64,000 bases of DNA. It comes from Candidatus Spechtbacteria bacterium (lineage in GTDB: Bacteria > Patescibacteriota > Minisyncoccia > Spechtbacterales > JACPHP01). Where the stretch lies: assembly GCA_016188605.1 (NCBI GenBank), contig JACPHP010000001.1, positions 1,327 through 65,326 on the forward strand, in the 5' to 3' direction. How positions within the stretch are numbered: position 1 is the stretch's first letter; each line of letters opens with the position of its first letter. The position numbers were made by a program, and so were the translations under genes. The notes under the pieces were generated by a model. The model was not told where the DNA came from. It saw nothing but the letters and a program-made list of their open reading frames with translations, and made no database searches. Positions 673-59,082 of the stretch are shown in pieces.

Positions 673-795
673 CTTGCTCGCTAGACAATAATTATAATTA
701 AAAATGAAACGGATAATATCCGTTGTTTTTATCGCTATATTAAAGCGATATGTTTGTTAATGAACAAATTCTATTTCAATAGTTATCAATATAAC

Positions 796-950
796 ATCTC
801 AAATCTCAAATGTTAAATCGCAAAACTAAAACTCAAATCTCTCAGCCAAGGGCTGATCCGCCTCCGGCGGAAAAACTTTTAATCTGACAGAGAGGAGATT
901 GTAGATTTAAGATGCAGATTTAAGATTTGCCATTTGAGATTTGAGATAAA
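796..950. repeat. palindromic heptamer array (aaatctc / gagattt arms) enclosing a REP-like twin-hairpin element
   Basis: Left arm has tandem caaatct-type 7-mers and the right arm has the reverse-complement 7-mers. The same organisation recurs at 58914..59068. Confidence 0.7.
842..875 (+). mobile_element. REP-like twin-hairpin element copy R1 (tCAGCC-aag-GGCTGa-tCCGCC-tcc-GGCGGaaaaa)
   Basis: Two adjacent GC-rich mini-hairpins in AT-rich spacer. Family has about 10 copies in the window. Confidence 0.7.
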
Positions 951-6212: not shown

Positions 6213-6887
6213 TTAGCGACTACCGCAAGACGCGGAACCCCAGCGGCCATCCGAGTCGCCGACCCCGTACCAGAAGAGCCTCGGCCGATCGCCGCCGTCC
6301 AGATAGACATTCGGCACCCCGTCGGCGGACTCGTAGCGGGAGCCGGTAGCCCACACATAGTGCCGCGAGAGCACATCCGTGTGAGTGGTGAGCGCCATGA
6401 CCTCGGCGGCAGTGAGCGGAGACCGCTTCTGCTGCTTGAGGATTTTCTCGGCGTTCTCCGGCGACTTGCCGCGCGTGCTGTTGCCGTCCTCGACATCGTA
6501 GATGTAGTAGGGCTCGCTGGGAGCGTCCACCACATCGGAGATCGCGGTCGGGTTGAGATAGGTGTAGCCCACCTTCCCGCCGTTCTTGACCATCGCCATG
6601 AGGTCGTAGGGGCTCCGATACGAACGGGGGATGACCGGGAGGAACGGAATGTTGCCGTCTCCGATCGCCACCTCGCTCGCCTTCTTCACCACTGCGCCCT
6701 TCTGGTTCTGGAGGATCTCCACGATCTGCTCTGGGACGCCGCGATCCTTGAGAGTCGCGATCTGAGCATCGAAGAGCTTCTCGAGGTCGTTCCGCTTGGC
6801 CTGCGCCACCGCGTCATCGAACTTCTCCGGGTCGGCCTCTCGCAAGAGGGCGACCAACCTCCCGATCAACTGAAACTGATTTACCAT
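6213..6887 (-). CDS. hypothetical protein encoded on a roughly 62 % GC island (likely horizontally acquired); family not recognised
   Basis: 224 aa with strongly GC3-biased codons, unlike all neighbours. Strong SD GGAGGAA 6 nt upstream of ATG at 6887. The island starts 19 nt after tRNA-Thr. Confidence 0.7.
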   Translation of the reverse strand: MVNQFQLIGRLVALLREADPEKFDDAVAQAKRNDLEKLFDAQIATLKDRGVPEQIVEILQNQKGAVVKKASEVAIGDGNIPFLPVIPRSYRSPYDLMAMVKNGGKVGYTYLNPTAISDVVDAPSEPYYIYDVEDGNSTRGKSPENAEKILKQQKRSPLTAAEVMALTTHTDVLSRHYVWATGSRYESADGVPNVYLDGGDRPRLFWYGVGDSDGRWGSASCGSR

Positions 6888-6908
6888 CTGTCCTTCCTCC
6901 TTCTGGAC

Positions 6909-6928
6909 TTTTCCGCCAAAGGCGGATC
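6909..6928 (-). mobile_element. partial/degenerate REP-like element copy R2 (ttttCCGCCaaaGGCGGatc)
   Basis: CCGCC-aaa-GGCGG hairpin preceded by tttt, matching one half of the twin-hairpin element. Confidence 0.5.
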
Positions 6929-6938
6929 TGTCTCTGGC

Positions 6939-8015
6939 ATGACACTTTCTGCGTTATGTATAACAAAATTCTGCCTCCTGTCAAGTACCCCGGGTAATGT
7001 GCCGCACATTACCAGCAGTTACATCAAATGCAGAGAAATATGGTATAATAACCTCGTGAATAATTTATTCGTTGACAAATTACGCGATAATTTTTCAGCC
7101 ACTCCACGCAATCAATATATAGCGTCTGCTTTTTTGATTTTTGCGACGTTTGCAATGTGGGAAGGGGTGAATGTTTTGGTTTCTGGGTCTGAAATCGCAG
7201 ATATTCATCTGATAATTGGGCTTATTGGTTTTACCCTATGGTCCGCGCTATTTGCTCTAAGCTTTCTTTTGCTTGATCCGCCGTGGCTTGCATACATTGT
7301 ATATATTATTACAAGTATCGTGCTTCTCGCATTGTTCGGCTGGCAGCAATGGCCTATCGTTGGTGTTGCTTCGTTCTTAATTTTTACGGTGTCCGCGCGC
7401 CAAAGTGTTACAAATGAGCGTGAATTACTTGCATCGTTTAGATTGAGCCGCTTTGTTAAAAAGGGATTGTCGTCATTTTTTACCGGCGTTGCCATACTGC
7501 TCGCGTTCGTTTATTATTTTTCTCCGTACGGAGCAGCAAACTTGCGGCCGGAAATTCCGCGCGCGGTAGTTGATCTCTCATTTATTCCAATAGACGTTAT
7601 TGCCGCAACAACAATCTACGGCTACGAACCAGGAGCAACTGTCGGCCAGTTCCAATCGTTGATGATCCAAAATCTTTTGCCAATATTAACTCACAGTACC
7701 GGACCGGTTCAAATTACAGAAGATGTGAAAAAAAATTTCAGCGTGATTAAAGATGAAAAAACGCTCGGAATGCCCCTGCCCCAATTTATATACGAGCAGT
7801 CAAACGCCTATCTTGCAAAATTCGTTGAGCCGTATAAAAGCTATTTGCCAATATTTTTCGTGCTTACTTCATTCTTGACTTTTAAATTATTGAGTATACC
7901 ATTTGTATGGTTTACTCAGCTTGCCGCGTGGGGTTTAATGAAGCTATTTATTGCACTCGGTATAGCAGGGTTTAATAAGGAAATAATAGAAAAAGACAGG
8001 CTGGTGTTGAAGTAA
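6939..8015 (+). CDS. hypothetical polytopic membrane protein (start chosen at first ATG outside the GC island)
   Basis: Track ORF 6360..8015 runs antisense through the GC-rich gene for its first about 190 codons. The hydrophobic multi-TM sequence begins about 6939. Confidence 0.5.
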
Positions 8016-9650: not shown

Positions 9651-9893
9651 ATGTCATCTGTATACGTGTTAAAGAGTCTGCGGAATGGCAAGAGGTATAT
9701 TGGAAGTACCGAACTTAATCCTGAAGAAAGATTGAAGCGGCATAATTCCGGTACCAATCAATTTACAAAAAGAAATGGGCCATTTGTATTGGTCTATCGA
9801 GAACAGTGTACTGACAAAACAGCATCAAGAAAAAGAGAGAATTTTTTAAAATCAGGAGTTGGAAGAAAGTACCTAGATAGTATTCTTAGTTAG
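9651..9893 (+). CDS. GIY-YIG nuclease superfamily protein (YhbQ/UPF0213-like, 80 aa)
   Basis: VYVLKSLRNGKRYIGSTELNPEERLKRHNSG...PFVLVYREQ...RENFLKSGVGRK matches the GIY-YIG core. GGAGGG sits upstream of ATG 9651. The track ORF starts earlier at 9609 inside the upstream gene. Confidence 0.6.
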   Translation: MSSVYVLKSLRNGKRYIGSTELNPEERLKRHNSGTNQFTKRNGPFVLVYREQCTDKTASRKRENFLKSGVGRKYLDSILS

Positions 9894-9906
9894 TTAAGTG
9901 TTTTGT

Positions 9907-9979
9907 GCACCCATAGCTCAGCTGGTAGAGCAGCTCCCTTTTAAGGAGATGGTCGCAGGTCCGAATCCTGCTGGGTGCA
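9907..9979 (+). tRNA. tRNA-Lys (anticodon UUU); CCA not encoded
   Basis: Acceptor GCACCCA/TGGGTGC, D-arm GCTC-AGCTGGTA-GAGC, anticodon stem GCTCC/GGAGA with loop CTTTTAA (anticodon TTT), T-arm GCAGG-TCCGAAT-CCTGC, discriminator A. Confidence 0.85.
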
Positions 9980-10002
9980 CAAAACACTTAACTATGTAGA
10001 GC

Positions 10003-10037
10003 AGCTCCCTTTTTCCGCCAGAGGCGGATCAGCCTTT
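10003..10037 (-). mobile_element. REP-like element copy R3 inserted in the anticodon loop of a tRNA-Lys fragment
   Basis: ttttCCGCCagagGCGGatCAGCCtttGGCTGaaa. Confidence 0.7.
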
Positions 10038-10152
10038 GGCTGAAAGGAGATGGTCGCAGGTCCGAAGGATCAGCCTTTGGCTGAAAGGAGATGGTCGCAG
10101 GTCCGAATCCTGCTGGGTGCACAAAACACTTAACTATGTAGAGCAGCTCCCT

Positions 10153-10197
10153 TTTTCCGCCCCGAGGTGTCTGTCCGCCTCAGAAGGGGATCAGTCT
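10153..10197 (-). mobile_element. degenerate long-variant REP-like element copy R5 in the second tRNA-Lys fragment
   Basis: ttttccgccccgaggtgtctgtccgcctcagaaggggatcagtct. Compare the long variant at 21367..21418. Confidence 0.5.
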
Positions 10198-10209
10198 AAA
10201 AGAAAAAAT

Positions 10210-10782
10210 ATGACCAAAAGAGTTTTTATAGTTCACGGCTGGGGTGGGCATCCTGAAGAAGGTTGGTTCCCTTGGCTGAAGCACGAGCTAGAAGCAAATG
10301 GTTTTGAAGCTATCGTTCCTCAGTTACCAGACGCCGACAATCCGCGCATTTACAATTGGGTGCCAAAGCTTGCCGAGATAGTCGGGGTTGCCGATGAAAA
10401 TACCTATTTTGTAGGTCACAGTATGGGTTGCCAAACCATCGCTCGCTATCTTGAAACTTTGCCCGAAGGAGTAAGGGTTGGAGGAGCGGTTTTTGTCGCG
10501 GGATTCTTTAAGCGGCTAAGCGGACTTGAGAACGACACAAACGCGAGAGTAACGGAGAGGCATTGGCTTGAGACGCCCGTTGACTTTGAAAAGATAGCGT
10601 CACACCTATCAAAAAGCATAGCTATATTTTCTGATGATGATCCTTATGTGCCGTTAGATAATCAAAATGACTTTCGCGATAAACTAGGTTCTGAAATTAT
10701 CATTCAACATAAAATGAGGCATTTTAGCGACGGGTTAACACGGCTGCCAATTGTATTGCAATCTGTGTTAAAACTTGCTTAA
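10210..10782 (+). CDS. alpha/beta hydrolase, YdeN/RBBP9-like serine hydrolase
   Basis: GHSMG nucleophile elbow. Start taken at ATG 10210 (MTKRVFIVHGWGG). The track start at 10036 lies inside the tRNA fragments. Confidence 0.7.
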   Translation: MTKRVFIVHGWGGHPEEGWFPWLKHELEANGFEAIVPQLPDADNPRIYNWVPKLAEIVGVADENTYFVGHSMGCQTIARYLETLPEGVRVGGAVFVAGFFKRLSGLENDTNARVTERHWLETPVDFEKIASHLSKSIAIFSDDDPYVPLDNQNDFRDKLGSEIIIQHKMRHFSDGLTRLPIVLQSVLKLA

Positions 10783-21279: not shown

Positions 21280-21458
21280 AATTTCAAAATCCAAATGTCA
21301 AATTACAAATCAATTTCAAATACTAAATGTCAAATGCTAAAATTTTAGGTTTTGAATATTTGAGACTTTTCCGCCTGAGGCGCCTGTCCGCCTCTGGCGG
21401 GGATCAGCCTATGGCCGAGACATTGATTTGACATTTGTAATTTGGACTTTGTAATTTA
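21280..21458. repeat. palindromic heptamer array (caaatgt/acatttg units) enclosing a long-variant REP-like element
   Basis: aaatgtcaaattacaaatcaatttcaaatactaaatgtcaaatg ... cattgatttgacatttgtaatttggactttgtaattt. Confidence 0.65.
21367..21418 (-). mobile_element. REP-like element, long variant (R6) with two CCGCC hairpins plus CAGCC/GGCC hairpin
   Basis: ttttccgcctgaggcgcctgtccgcctctggcggggatcagcctatggccgaga. Its reverse complement matches the 45196..45246 copy. Confidence 0.65.
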
Positions 21459-21464
21459 CTAGCT

Positions 21465-23027
21465 ATGTCCTCTCGCATTTTCTCCCCTCTAAACATAATC
21501 TATATCCTCTCGCTGGTAACTCTGTTCGCGGCTGTCTTTGGCGTTGTGCCTCGGGAGTTTATTTTTATTCCAGCAGTCCTTATTCTGGGATATATGCTTG
21601 TCGCGCCGCATCAAAACGGCTTACTTTTGTTTGTTAGATTTATTCCATTTTTCTTTGCCCTGCCGCTCACGCAAGGATTTGATAATTTTAATCTCTGGCG
21701 TATTGCCATAATTTTGCTTTTCGCGAAATGGATTTTAAGCGGCAGAAATCTCGATGAAATTGTAGCTTCATTGCAATGGAATAATTTGCGCAATCTGTGG
21801 AACAGCGCGCGGGCAGAAGTTCTTGGCAGCGCATTGTTTGCGCTAGCTTTCATCTCGTTGTTTGTTGCGCAGGATATATCCACTGGTGTTAAAAGGATTA
21901 TTTATTTTGCTAACCTAACTCTTTTGTTTGTAATAGTGCGCGGTTTGGTGCGGCGCGAAAATGGATACGTGCAAAAACTGACGAATAATTTTGTAGTATC
22001 AGGGATGGTGGCTGTGGTTGTTGGATTTGGCCAGTGGATAAGCACATATTTTTTACCCGTCTGGATTTTTCATTATTGGTGGGGGCAGATCGTGTCTTTG
22101 AATATGTATGGACAACAATGGGCGAATATAGTAACAAATTTTGGCAACACGTGGTTTAGTTATTCGGGCGGTGGGCTGCGCCTGCGTATGTTTTCTTTAT
22201 TTCCCGACTCGCATACATTTCCGTTATACTTGCTCATGGTTTTGCCGTTTTTGTTTTTGTTCATATACGATGCAAAACGAACGCTCACAAAATGGGAACG
22301 CCGGCTGGCATGGTTTGGATTTTTGGCATTGCACCTCGCGCTTATTTTAAGTGGTACCAGAGGAATATGGGCGGGTATTATTTTTCCGGCAGTGGCACTT
22401 GGTACAGCGTGGTTTTTCATGCCGTATACGCGCGTATACGGAAAAAAAGTTGCTTTATCTATAGGGGCATTTATTTTGATGTTCCCTTTCGCGTGGGCGA
22501 TATTGATGCTGCCGCAATTTCAAGACGACAATGTGCCGTCGCATAATGTTTTCTTTACTAGGATTGGTTCTTTGATAGATACTTCTGAAACTTCAAACCA
22601 AGGCCGCATCGCTATTTGGAGAAGCACGCTGAAATCAATAGCGCATAATCCAGCGCTTGGTATAGGCATAGGGAATTATCCCGTGGTTTTAGATCAAAAT
22701 ATATCGGCAACAAGAATGGGCGCATCCGCGCATAATCTATATTTACAGGTTGCCTCGGAAATGGGCATTCCAGCTGCTATAATATTTATATGGTTCTTGT
22801 GGGAGGTGTTTGCTCGCGCGTGGCGGTTTGCTCAAAAACCGTCGTATAATACGTTAACGGGCCTTTTTGCTTTCGCAATCATTTTTTCATTTATTTGGAT
22901 TTTGGGTTACAGCCTAACTGATGCGGCGCTGTTTGACGAGCGGGCATTTTTGGGTTTCTTGGTGTTTATAGGCGTGTTACTTGGGATAACGAGGCAAAAT
23001 GAAATAAAAAATCCCAAACCCCAATGA
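21465..23027 (+). CDS. O-antigen ligase / Wzy-like polytopic membrane protein
   Basis: 520 aa, more than 10 TM helices with a large periplasmic-type loop. Its last codons and TGA stop lie inside the heptamer array at 23009..23130. Confidence 0.55.
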   Translation: MSSRIFSPLNIIYILSLVTLFAAVFGVVPREFIFIPAVLILGYMLVAPHQNGLLLFVRFIPFFFALPLTQGFDNFNLWRIAIILLFAKWILSGRNLDEIVASLQWNNLRNLWNSARAEVLGSALFALAFISLFVAQDISTGVKRIIYFANLTLLFVIVRGLVRRENGYVQKLTNNFVVSGMVAVVVGFGQWISTYFLPVWIFHYWWGQIVSLNMYGQQWANIVTNFGNTWFSYSGGGLRLRMFSLFPDSHTFPLYLLMVLPFLFLFIYDAKRTLTKWERRLAWFGFLALHLALILSGTRGIWAGIIFPAVALGTAWFFMPYTRVYGKKVALSIGAFILMFPFAWAILMLPQFQDDNVPSHNVFFTRIGSLIDTSETSNQGRIAIWRSTLKSIAHNPALGIGIGNYPVVLDQNISATRMGASAHNLYLQVASEMGIPAAIIFIWFLWEVFARAWRFAQKPSYNTLTGLFAFAIIFSFIWILGYSLTDAALFDERAFLGFLVFIGVLLGITRQNEIKNPKPQ

Positions 23028-27160: not shown

Positions 27161-27192
27161 TCAGCCAAAGGCTGATCCGCCTTCGGCGGAAA
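27161..27192 (+). mobile_element. REP-like element copy R7
   Basis: tCAGCCaaaGGCTGatCCGCCttcGGCGGaaattt. Confidence 0.7.
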
Positions 27193-27265
27193 TTTATCTC
27201 GCTTCGCGAGATCTAGCATAGCCAGACAATGAATTTACAATGACTCAATTACTAATCGTGTGTTT

Positions 27266-27300
27266 TCAGCCATAGGCTGATCCGCCTCAGGCGGAGAAAA
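27266..27300 (+). mobile_element. REP-like element copy R8
   Basis: tCAGCCataGGCTGatCCGCCtcaGGCGGagaaaa. Confidence 0.7.
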
Positions 27301-45099: not shown

Positions 45100-45295
45100 T
45101 CAAAATTTTCAATGGTTATGTTTTCAGCCATAGCAAGAAATACAAAAAAATGTATTTCTACGTTTAACAAAAATTACAACAAAATGTAATTTTACGCTAA
45201 GGCTGATCCCCGCCAGAGGCGGGCAGGCGTCTCAGGCGGAGAAAATTTAGTAATTGTAAATTTATTGAAAATTGTTAAATTGAAAATTGATCATT
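45100..45295. repeat. spacer filled with heptamer repeats (ttgaaaattg units) and a long-variant REP-like element
   Basis: ttcaaaattttcaatgg...gtaattgtaaatttattgaaaattgttaaattgaaaattgatcat. The same ttgaaaattg motif follows R8 at 27400..27455. Confidence 0.6.
45196..45246 (+). mobile_element. REP-like element long variant copy R9
   Basis: gctaaggctgatccccgccagaggcgggcaggcgtctcaggcggagaaaattt, the reverse complement of the 21367 copy. Confidence 0.65.
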
Positions 45296-58908: not shown

Positions 58909-58913
58909 AATGT

Positions 58914-59068
58914 TATCTCAAAACGCAAATCTCAAATGTCAAAACTGAAACTTAAATCTCAAAACTACTACGGAGATACTTTTAATTTTTCCGCCAGAGG
59001 CGGATCAGCCTCAGGCTGAAGATTTAAGATTTTGATTTGAGTTTTACGATTTGAAATTTGAGATAAAA
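58914..59068. repeat. palindromic heptamer array (caaatct / agatttg arms) enclosing REP-like element R10
   Basis: Same organisation as 796..950. Confidence 0.7.
58987..59020 (-). mobile_element. REP-like element copy R10
   Basis: ttttCCGCCagagGCGGatCAGCCtcaGGCTGaa. Confidence 0.7.
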
Positions 59069-59082
59069 ATAGTTTACTACTG

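Follow-up and report, generated by a model that had tools for sequence, protein, structure and literature searches.

A GIY-YIG nuclease gene, an intact tRNA-Lys gene and hairpin-split tRNA fragments form a probable homing-type cassette in a Candidatus Spechtbacteria bacterium and its relatives

Organization of the locus

We analyzed a stretch of 64,000 nucleotides (nt) from a Candidatus Spechtbacteria bacterium (GenBank assembly GCA_016188605.1, contig JACPHP010000001.1, positions 1,327 to 65,326 of the forward strand), referred to here as the window and numbered from its first letter. The region of interest, 9651 to 10782, holds a gene for a small GIY-YIG nuclease, an intact tRNA-Lys gene, partial copies of that tRNA gene interrupted by a GC-rich twin hairpin (the whole of these parts being called the cassette below), and a serine hydrolase gene. 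An upstream membrane-protein gene (177 amino acids, aa) ends 4 nt 5' of the GIY-YIG gene start. The GIY-YIG protein and its neighbours match NCBI proteins labelled Candidatus Spechtbacteria at 100% identity. The features are as follows.

9651 to 9893, plus strand: stand-alone GIY-YIG nuclease gene, 80 aa, UPF0213/Slx1-like by sequence (PF01541, E 5.6e-14)
9891 to 9906, plus strand: leader arm of an inverted repeat, pairing with 9980 to 9994
9907 to 9979, plus strand: intact tRNA-Lys(UUU), the functional copy of the cassette (ARAGORN; Rfam RF00005, 68.7 bits)
9980 to 9996, plus strand: trailer arm (9980 to 9994) and 2-nt TG spacer
9997 to 10013, plus strand: S1', copy of tRNA nt 20 to 36, an exact match to 9926 to 9942
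10014 to 10043, plus strand: E1, 30-nt twin hairpin, between tRNA nt 36 and 37
10044 to 10066, plus strand: S2', copy of tRNA nt 37 to 59
10067 to 10107, plus strand: exact 41-nt tandem duplicate (GG, hairpin 2 and tRNA nt 37 to 59), 100% identical to 10026 to 10066
10108 to 10138, plus strand: S3' and trailer copy (tRNA nt 60 to 73, 15-nt trailer arm, TG spacer)
10139 to 10155, plus strand: S1'', second copy of tRNA nt 20 to 36, its junction reproduced in Logan contig L007
10156 to 10197, plus strand: E2, decayed three-hairpin variant (compare 21367 to 21418)
10210 to 10782, plus strand: serine hydrolase gene, a neighbour outside the cassette (PF06821, residues 6 to 182 of 190 aa)

The original prediction, made from the letters of the DNA, had placed an intact tRNA-Lys gene at 9907 to 9979 with a GIY-YIG gene (9651 to 9893) directly upstream, and ARAGORN, Rfam and PF01541 agree with it; the first two detect one tRNA-Lys(UUU) at this locus. 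A perfect 23-nt inverted repeat (9891 to 9913 and 9972 to 9994) begins with the stop codon TAG of the GIY-YIG gene and lengthens the acceptor stem of the tRNA by 16 bp; the leader-tRNA-trailer segment has a predicted fold of -35.9 kcal/mol (z -9.4).

Downstream, two tandem partial copies of the tRNA had been described, each split in the anticodon loop by the hairpin. The first copy conforms to this description in its split. The sequence of tRNA nt 20 to 36, TAGAGCAGCTCCCTTTT, which spans the 3' strand of the D stem, the 5' strand of the anticodon stem and the loop up to the anticodon, recurs at 9997 to 10013 and is followed by E1, which consists of TCCGCCAGAGGCGGA and TCAGCCTTTGGCTGA (TCCGCC-AGA-GGCGGA and TCAGCC-TTT-GGCTGA) and is a near-palindrome. 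The insertion is clean, with no nucleotide duplicated or lost, and the tRNA resumes at nt 37 (AAGGAG...). This copy also contains the exact 41-nt tandem duplication, which the original prediction had not mentioned. The second copy proved to be only a 17-nt 5' piece (10139 to 10155) and the decayed variant E2, directly 3' of which the hydrolase start region begins, with no tRNA 3' part (AAGG...). E1 and its flanking anticodon-stem strands are predicted to form a three-way junction (fold z -3.7), whereas E2 folds no better than shuffled sequence (z -0.15). The S3' and trailer copy lies within an exact 77-nt repeat (9943 to 10019 and 10085 to 10161) and makes a second inverted repeat with the leader; the 77-nt and 41-nt repeats are both far above chance.

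The partial copies had been suspected of being non-functional, and none gave a tRNA match in Rfam even at E<=10. An open reading frame (ORF) start at 10036, inside the repeat region, had rightly been called artefactual, for the hydrolase domain begins at residue 6 of the protein that starts at ATG 10210, which is the true start; an exact-protein look-up of the hydrolase returned no record. With E1 intact and E2 decayed, the two right-hand units are of different age, which fits two successive events or an old unit with a recent duplication. An exact 41-nt tandem duplication is typical of slippage, and slippage or repeated invasion is the best reading of the tandem units.

The GIY-YIG protein

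The 80-aa protein matches PF01541 above the curated cut-off and has the features of the GIY-YIG superfamily, the catalytic residues Y5, Y16, R27, H31 and E63 being invariant among 28 homologues. Profile comparison with the PDB gave as nearest solved structures the UPF0213 proteins BH0048 (1zg2, E 5.9e-11) and EF2693 (1ywl, E 2.1e-8), followed by SLX1 (E ~4e-4), and on sequence grounds we assign the protein to the UPF0213/Slx1-like clade. The group I intron endonuclease model TIGR01453 gave a weak, sub-threshold match (21.8 bits against a cut-off of 56) and PADLOC only a weak 'homing endonuclease' match (E 0.0065). The family comprises 4,926 clusters (50% identity, E<=1e-10, representative protein library), and a tblastn search (E<=1e-5) found no match to the protein in 50,697 phage records or in a plasmid collection. 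The median dN/dS of 0.105 among the homologues linked to tRNA-Lys (the Lys family) points to purifying selection. SLX1 is a structure-specific endonuclease that cuts branched and stem-loop DNA. Because the nearest solved relatives are UPF0213 proteins and SLX1, and in view of the predicted three-way junction, the protein may plausibly act in a structure-specific manner on stem-loops of tRNA genes or on the palindrome.

Many family members (P0228 to P0377) are 100 to 125 aa long, with the domain beginning at residue 20 to 45, and some have two domains. These longer members probably have starts called too far upstream, in the tRNA fragment or hairpin, or are fused tandem cassettes; if so, the over-long proteins are the same type of artefact as the ORF start at 10036.

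The same architecture in relatives with tRNA-Lys

Homologues of the nuclease at 65 to 80% identity were found in Tagabacteria, Giovannonibacteria, Yanofskybacteria, Zambryskibacteria and others (individual loci, contigs and proteins are denoted by L and P numbers). In 10 of 10 loci, from three Lys-family homologues, a tRNA-Lys(UUU) gene lies 13 to 22 nt 3' of the GIY-YIG gene, one or more 5'-truncated tRNA-Lys copies split by the same twin hairpins at nt 36/37 follow the intact tRNA, and tRNA nt 1 to 36, a hairpin and nt 37 to 4x stand upstream of the GIY-YIG gene. The complete form can be written as [tRNA 1-36 - hairpin - 37-4x] - GIY-YIG - [leader - tRNA - trailer] - [2x-36 - hairpin - 37-76]. 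The leader/trailer stems of the relatives, of 12 to 16 bp, are wholly different in sequence in each lineage and therefore covary. Across relatives the twin hairpin is a near-perfect 30-nt palindrome, found in both orientations, in which stem position 3 covaries (A-T/C-G) and the loops are free; complementarity between loop 1 and loop 2 amounts to a purine/pyrimidine trend, with no strict pairing. A mechanistic link between the nuclease and the split tRNA copies had been raised at the outset, and the association is not a coincidence: every Lys-family locus examined has the trio of GIY-YIG gene, tRNA and hairpin-split tRNA fragment, and the trio recurs with other tRNAs in other phyla.

A metagenome scan by junction sequence alone, and hence blind to the protein, returned 46 loci. 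A GIY-YIG gene stands beside the junction in 33 of them; the full junction-GIY-tRNA-junction form is present in 15, and 10 have the right junction only, like the window. The GIY-YIG gene is missing from 13 loci, 6 of which are cut by contig ends. In the window (SPECIFICALLY) two right-hand units are present and the left junction is absent, because the GIY-YIG gene abuts the membrane-protein gene. L106 and L133 have arrays of two or three right-hand units, and the number of units ranges from 1 to at least 3 among contigs encoding the identical protein P0008 (L011 and L012 versus L013, L014 and L133). Some GIY-bearing loci, such as L108, have no hairpin-split fragment, and fragments have decayed outside the hairpin, with broken T stems and indels, in L009, L103, L114, L141 and L123.

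Three further features of tRNA-Lys loci were observed. In the left junctions of L009, L011 and L015 the motif AAGGAG, the 3' strand of the anticodon stem, lies 8 to 25 nt before the GIY-YIG start codon and may double as its Shine-Dalgarno sequence. L144 (1380 to 1700) carries a complete pseudo-tRNA-Lys with twin hairpins in the D- and T-loops and several hairpins in the anticodon loop, with no GIY-YIG gene nearby. In L109 (9150 to 9900) and L143, pseudo-copies that precede an intact tRNA-Lys are split by other, unrelated palindromes (for example TCCCGA...TCGGGA and CCCCGAC...GTCGGGG), with no GIY-YIG match nearby, and different hairpin families may thus play the same role.

Evidence for mobility

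The cassette is mobile. The cassettes of L108 and L123 share 90.7% nucleotide identity over a block of ~395 nt that runs from the left hairpin junction up to the 3' end of the tRNA, and have unrelated flanks and neighbouring genes; since the hairpin is part of this ~91%-identical block, it travels with the cassette. Along the same lines, the GIY-YIG protein of the window is 78% identical to that of a Tagabacteria relative, with the adjacent DnaJ proteins 44% identical. The right fragments of L118/L127 and L138 come from another tRNA-Lys allele, with a T stem or acceptor stem unlike that of the cassette tRNA and with an encoded CCA, and compensatory stem changes separate the disrupted copy from the intact tRNA in L064 and L097. 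In 42 of 72 cases a GIY-YIG protein and its nearest neighbour in sequence are linked to tRNAs of the same amino-acid type (0.10 expected by chance); only 30 of the 72 have the same taxon label. L117, L122, L034, L041 and L083 contain tandem GIY-YIG units.

An empty site, which the original prediction had suggested looking for in related genomes, is found in the Spechtbacterales relative L150, where the order DnaK-DnaJ-membrane protein-tRNA-Lys is kept and there is no GIY-YIG gene, fragment or hairpin. The GIY-YIG gene is likewise absent between the same neighbours in L145, and L120 is syntenic, lacks the gene and keeps one hairpin-split fragment. These comparisons are at the level of the order, not the strain, the closest DnaJ relatives being at most 58% identical. 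No tRNA-Lys lies near DnaJ in L146, and a synteny search with the 177-aa membrane protein found only the protein itself. Both presence/absence polymorphism at a conserved site and horizontal spread, as expected of homing endonuclease genes, are thus on record. In a further Spechtbacterales relative, L148 (4560 to 5010), the tRNA-Lys is extended by 15 bp of leader/trailer stem, and a terminator-like hairpin encloses a short 3' acceptor remnant, GGTGGGCGGAC. GIY-YIG gene and GC-rich hairpin are both absent, and the locus may be a decayed cassette.

Other tRNA genes across phyla

A protein-alignment scan of one genome per species gave 80 loci among the matches listed, at 41 to 68% identity, a sample of more distant relatives rather than the closest ones. 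They come from the candidate phyla radiation (CPR), Omnitrophota, Bacteroidota, Ignavibacteria, Chlorobi, Planctomycetota, Acidobacteria, Chloroflexota and others. A tRNA gene is directly adjacent on the same strand in 67 of the 80 listed loci (47 downstream, 20 upstream), with 14 amino-acid types represented, and several of the remaining 13 have intron-bearing tRNA-Asn genes or tandem cassette arrays. On the opposite side of the nuclease gene there is a fragment of the same tRNA, cleanly split by a GC-rich palindrome; a perfect hairpin inserted in this manner was identified in 30 of the 80 listed loci, mostly in the D-loop, anticodon loop or T-loop. In CPR, Omnitrophota, Chlorobi and Ignavibacteria the palindrome is the twin hairpin of the window or a covarying variant, and in Bacteroidota, Planctomycetota and Acidobacteria it is a single 20-nt CCTGCCTGCCGGCAGGCAGG. 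In the Ser and Asn sister families it sits exactly in GGTTC^GAATC. Cassette neighbourhoods (91 kb) hold 57 perfect hairpins, versus 1 in the other 258 kb.

Several CPR loci, among them L022, L023 and L032 (downstream of the GIY-YIG gene), have a tRNA-Asn-like gene split after ..ACTGT by an apparent group I intron, and ARAGORN misses these genes because of this interruption. In L024 a second GIY-YIG ORF lies inside the anticodon-loop region of the adjacent tRNA.

A proposed homing-type cassette

The cassette consists of an 80-aa GIY-YIG gene, its own intact tRNA-Lys(UUU) in a long stem, and twin hairpins at nt 36/37 of left-over tRNA pieces. We consider it reasonably likely, by analogy with known homing systems, that this is a homing-type, tRNA-replacing selfish cassette, and positions 9651 to 10200 are probably a partly eroded copy of such a small mobile unit. 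By comparison with phage SegB (see below), the nuclease would break a resident tRNA gene in a cloverleaf loop, and repair would copy in the cassette, with the two tRNA halves serving as homology arms. The tRNA of the cassette would keep the cell alive while the halves of the resident gene persisted as dead fragments, and the palindrome within them would both destroy the target and split the homology able to restore the old gene. Slippage, unequal recombination or repeated invasion could afterwards change the number of direct repeats and hairpins in either direction and so produce the tandem partial copies, and in this genome the hairpin would also have spread as solo copies resembling repetitive extragenic palindromic (REP) sequences.

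A more tentative extension is that minimal GIY-YIG genes and palindromes form an unrecognised pan-bacterial class of 'cleave-and-rescue' selfish elements, in which the palindrome would put the resident, essential tRNA gene out of action for good and the cassette tRNA would be the antidote to which the host is addicted. The structure-specific, Slx1-like nuclease would then have as its target either the palindrome or the loops of stem-loops in tRNA genes, and the palindrome could spread alone into hairpin loops. If this were so, nature would have its own version of the synthetic toxin-antidote gene drive, and the class would promote horizontal replacement of tRNA genes.

Several points weigh against a homing-type cassette. 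The 80-aa protein is without any DNA-binding domain and has no known activity or target. The intact tRNA of the cassette would carry the same target and would need self-immunity, which the leader/trailer stem or low expression might provide. A dN/dS of ~0.1 and DnaJ-GIY-tRNA-Lys synteny across CPR classes could reflect domestication or a host function. Hairpin-bearing fragments exist with no GIY-YIG gene in cis (L120, L141, L140 and L144), and the hairpin can therefore persist or arise independently. In cassettes of the 'down' type the hairpin and the GIY-YIG ORF start lie 8 to 28 nt apart, an offset not obviously predicted by a single cut-and-copy event. The taxon labels of some metagenome-assembled genomes (MAGs) may be unreliable, and the inner unit, the 41-nt duplicate and the number of units in the window are known from one assembly only. 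Finally, the window copy lacks a left junction and is therefore probably no longer mobile. We also considered target-site duplication by staggered cuts at the base of the anticodon arm, which fits the Lys family but not the single-hairpin cassettes of the 'down' type, and did not adopt it.

Comparison with known systems

The closest precedent, judged by analogy, is SegB of the phage T4/T6 tRNA cluster, a free-standing GIY-YIG homing endonuclease that cuts inside tRNA genes (PMC13096335; PMC2330249). Its reported cutting motif, RAWTSGAAC, resembles a T-loop, and SegB itself is statistically enriched beside tRNAs of many isotypes (PMC13096335); it also drives tandem amplification of tRNA-containing segments (PMC13096335; PMC2330249). 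SegB has a C-terminal portion beyond the nuclease core, of which T6 escapers lose the last 28 aa (PMC13096335). The motif is the reverse complement of the T-loop box GTTCGAATC, and the two systems share a free-standing GIY-YIG gene among tRNA genes as well as this region, the palindromes of the Ser and Asn sister families lying in the T-loop GGTTC^GAATC. They differ in that SegB is a phage protein with a C-terminal portion, whereas the protein described here is a UPF0213/Slx1-like catalytic core of 80 aa, chromosomal in CPR and many phyla and with no tblastn match in the 50,697 phage records. We know of no hairpin-split tRNA fragments and no replacement-tRNA design at SegB loci.

Integrative elements that target tRNA genes also insert in the gene, bring the displaced part, regenerate an intact tRNA and leave a partial copy as a scar; in tyrosine-integrase elements attL is the regenerated tRNA and attR the displaced fragment. 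Here, in contrast, there is no integrase in the neighbourhood, the unit measures ~0.4 to 0.5 kb, either the 5' or the 3' part can be displaced, and the scars are split, in a cloverleaf loop, by a conserved palindrome. REP sequences and REPINs resemble the present system in being short GC-rich intergenic palindromes that flank one small nuclease or transposase gene, and the twin hairpin recalls REP doublets. The flanked gene is, however, a GIY-YIG gene and not the HUH/Y1 transposase of REP-associated tyrosine transposase (RAYT) systems, and the palindromes, which lie embedded in tRNA fragments, are in most genomes found nowhere but in the tRNA cassette; dispersed intergenic palindromes in both orientations are found in the window and are unusual for the family. 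The closest sequence relatives with solved structures are the UPF0213 proteins (BH0048, EF2693, E. coli YhbQ-type) and SLX1, and the substrate type of SLX1 would fit the modeled hairpin-in-stem three-way junction.

Some group I introns carry GIY-YIG homing endonuclease genes. Group I introns in tRNA anticodon loops are common in CPR/Patescibacteria (PMC13011429). The present loci resemble them in having a tRNA gene interrupted in the anticodon loop, and some GIY-YIG cassettes adjoin intron-bearing tRNA-Asn genes. The 30-nt insert, however, holds no ribozyme (Rfam gave no match, either at the gathering threshold or at E<=10) and does not contain the nuclease gene, and the split copies lack tRNA nt 1 to 19 and therefore cannot be spliced into a tRNA. 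A tRNA intron and a permuted or split tRNA were accordingly rejected as explanations of the copies, which also have no tRNA score.

None of the compared systems (SegB-type, integrative elements, REP/RAYT) combines a minimal UPF0213-type GIY-YIG protein, a replacement tRNA and a conserved palindrome that sits in loops of the displaced tRNA pieces. In the literature searched, a tRNA linkage of bacterial UPF0213 proteins was not reported and no description of tRNA-linked UPF0213-type GIY-YIG cassettes was found, which is not proof of absence. If the proposal of a homing-type cassette is correct, it would assign a function to the 'hypothetical' stand-alone GIY-YIG proteins that make up this very large family and extend SegB-type tRNA-linked homing and amplification from phages to bacterial chromosomes. 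The tRNA genes of CPR and many other phyla would routinely be split and replaced by a ~0.4-kb cassette, with horizontal turnover of tRNA alleles, and the recurrent contig breaks, pseudo-tRNA fragments, spurious ORF starts and over-extended N-termini met next to tRNAs in MAGs would be explained. It would also offer a compact nuclease-plus-palindrome system, with a tRNA-gene loop, a cruciform or a three-way junction as candidate substrates.

Alternative explanations

The hairpin is not confined to the cassette in this genome. Hairpin motif counts in the 64-kb window are 13 (0.48 expected) and 7 (0.05 expected), and at least seven solo copies lie outside the locus:

842 to 871, minus strand: intergenic solo twin hairpin in the middle of a palindromic element rich in CAAAT/ATTTG
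6912 to 6926, plus strand: solo single hairpin TCCGCCAAAGGCGGA, intergenic
21367 to 21418, plus strand: solo three-hairpin variant, intergenic, with a T-run before it
27161 to 27190, minus strand: solo twin hairpin, intergenic
27266 to 27295, minus strand: solo twin hairpin, 105 nt from the copy at 27161 to 27190 and in the same orientation
45123 to 45247, minus strand: three-hairpin variant with a ~62-nt AT-rich insert in the loop of the third hairpin
58990 to 59019, plus strand: intergenic solo twin hairpin in the middle of a palindromic element rich in CAAAT/ATTTG

We therefore weighed whether the twin hairpin could be an autonomous element, similar to REP sequences or miniature inverted-repeat transposable elements (MITEs), that inserts after TT in the loops of stem-loops, while the tRNA duplications arise separately by slippage. 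Redundant tRNA fragments would then be safe targets, hits in an essential copy being lethal and never seen, and the GIY-YIG protein would at most be a nuclease acting in trans, as RAYT does for REP. The solo copies accord with this, as all are intergenic and they occur in both orientations irrespective of gene direction. So do the flanks, which are alike for solo and tRNA-embedded copies: the original prediction had asked whether copies elsewhere are flanked by TTTT/AA like the anticodon loop, as a sign of target mimicry, and this is true in part, since a T-run or TT does precede nearly all of them but the 3' flank shows no more than a purine bias. Three solo copies at the centres of long AT-rich palindromes, the variant with an insert in its own loop, the pseudo-tRNA-Lys of L144 with hairpins in all three loops, and the split fragments of L120 and L141 with no GIY-YIG gene in cis also favor it. 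Against it, solo copies are rare outside this genome (1 perfect hairpin in 258 kb of flanks versus 57 beside cassettes), the position of the hairpin is fixed within each GIY-YIG/tRNA family, the hairpin belongs to the ~91%-identical block common to cassettes in unrelated contexts, and the ORFs examined near the locus included no transposase, of the Y1/RAYT type or any other. We regard an autonomous element as rather unlikely to account for the locus. The at least seven solo copies, the T-runs before them and the three at the centres of AT-rich palindromes nevertheless suggest that in this genome the palindrome has spread alone, REP-like, into hairpin loops, which is unusual for the family at large, where perfect palindromes are nearly confined to cassettes. 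Intrinsic terminators were rejected as an explanation of the hairpins, since the T-run precedes rather than follows them and their orientation is independent of gene direction.

It is improbable that the structure is a functional RNA module, in which fragments, nuclease mRNA and tRNA would be transcribed together, with the fragments serving as decoys, platforms for processing or repeats akin to an antitoxin, and the nuclease would act on tRNA-Lys in the manner of a type III toxin-antitoxin system or an anticodon nuclease. The nuclease gene does adjoin tandem structured repeats, its protein is under strong purifying selection, the leader/trailer stem is kept by covariation, the anticodon-stem strands are kept on both sides of the hairpin with a stable predicted three-way junction, and one GIY-YIG/TrmH-like fusion has been noted (PMC1564403). 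The fragments, however, decay outside the hairpin in the five loci named above, the second unit of the window is degenerate, and the number and side of fragments vary down to none, as in L108. Sister families use any tRNA and any loop, no Rfam family matches, and a module of this kind does not predict the evidence for mobility. Some loci do have tandem units, which are optional and decay, and the protein belongs to no known family of type III toxins. The original prediction had also entertained an anticodon-nuclease role at the level of RNA, for which we found nothing in support; the hairpins of sister families lie in D- and T-loops of other tRNAs, a placement that points to events at the level of DNA.

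That the tandem structure is a short-repeat assembly artefact in a MAG is very doubtful. Logan contigs from at least six samples end inside the tRNA, and the inner unit and 41-nt duplication are those seen in this assembly only. Independent Logan contigs reproduce both outer junctions (GIY-YIG-tRNA and trailer-S1''-E2-hydrolase), breaks at repeat branch points are what real repeats produce, and the same architecture, including arrays of two or three units, is found in dozens of unrelated metagenomes.

Hardly any weight can be given to attL/attR scars of a tyrosine-integrase element (a prophage or island) that entered tRNA-Lys and later decayed or was excised, although an intact tRNA followed by partial copies of its 3' portion is the textbook footprint, as the original prediction had it, and the anticodon loop is a known crossover sublocation of integrases: we rejected it on the grounds that a domain scan of ten ORFs (5.2 to 14 kb) found no integrase or phage gene, the whole 'insert' between copies is 17 to 100 nt (and the inserted unit only ~0.1 to 0.5 kb), a conserved palindrome interrupts the copies so that no uninterrupted block of identity remains, in relatives the nuclease gene also has 5' fragments on its upstream side, the design is repeated with breaks in D- and T-loops, and a tblastn search (E<=1e-5) of the phage and plasmid collections gave no match to the GIY-YIG protein.

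Surroundings of the solo hairpins

Three intergenic elements of ~160 nt, at 775 to 945 (minus strand), 21290 to 21465 (plus strand) and 58912 to 59080 (plus strand), share a common plan with a mean column identity of 72%, in which CAAAT-type repeats are followed by a twin or triple hairpin and then by ATTTG-type repeats. All three are long imperfect palindromes, rich in AT and tipped by the GC-rich hairpin, and together they could be a MITE family or AT-rich stem-loops invaded by the hairpin. In the variant at 45123 to 45247 (minus strand) the third hairpin, TCAGCCATAGC...GCTAAGGCTGA, has a loop insert that holds small hairpins of its own and parallels the insertions in tRNA loops. The two twin hairpins of the same orientation at 27161 to 27295 bracket a 75-nt segment between two genes on the plus strand, an arrangement that resembles a miniature two-ended element. 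Lastly, a 551-aa ORF with a GTG start (6360 to 8015, plus strand) overlaps a DUF5701 gene (6213 to 6887, minus strand); its N-terminal part is probably spurious, and the single hairpin at 6912 to 6926 falls in the true intergenic gap.

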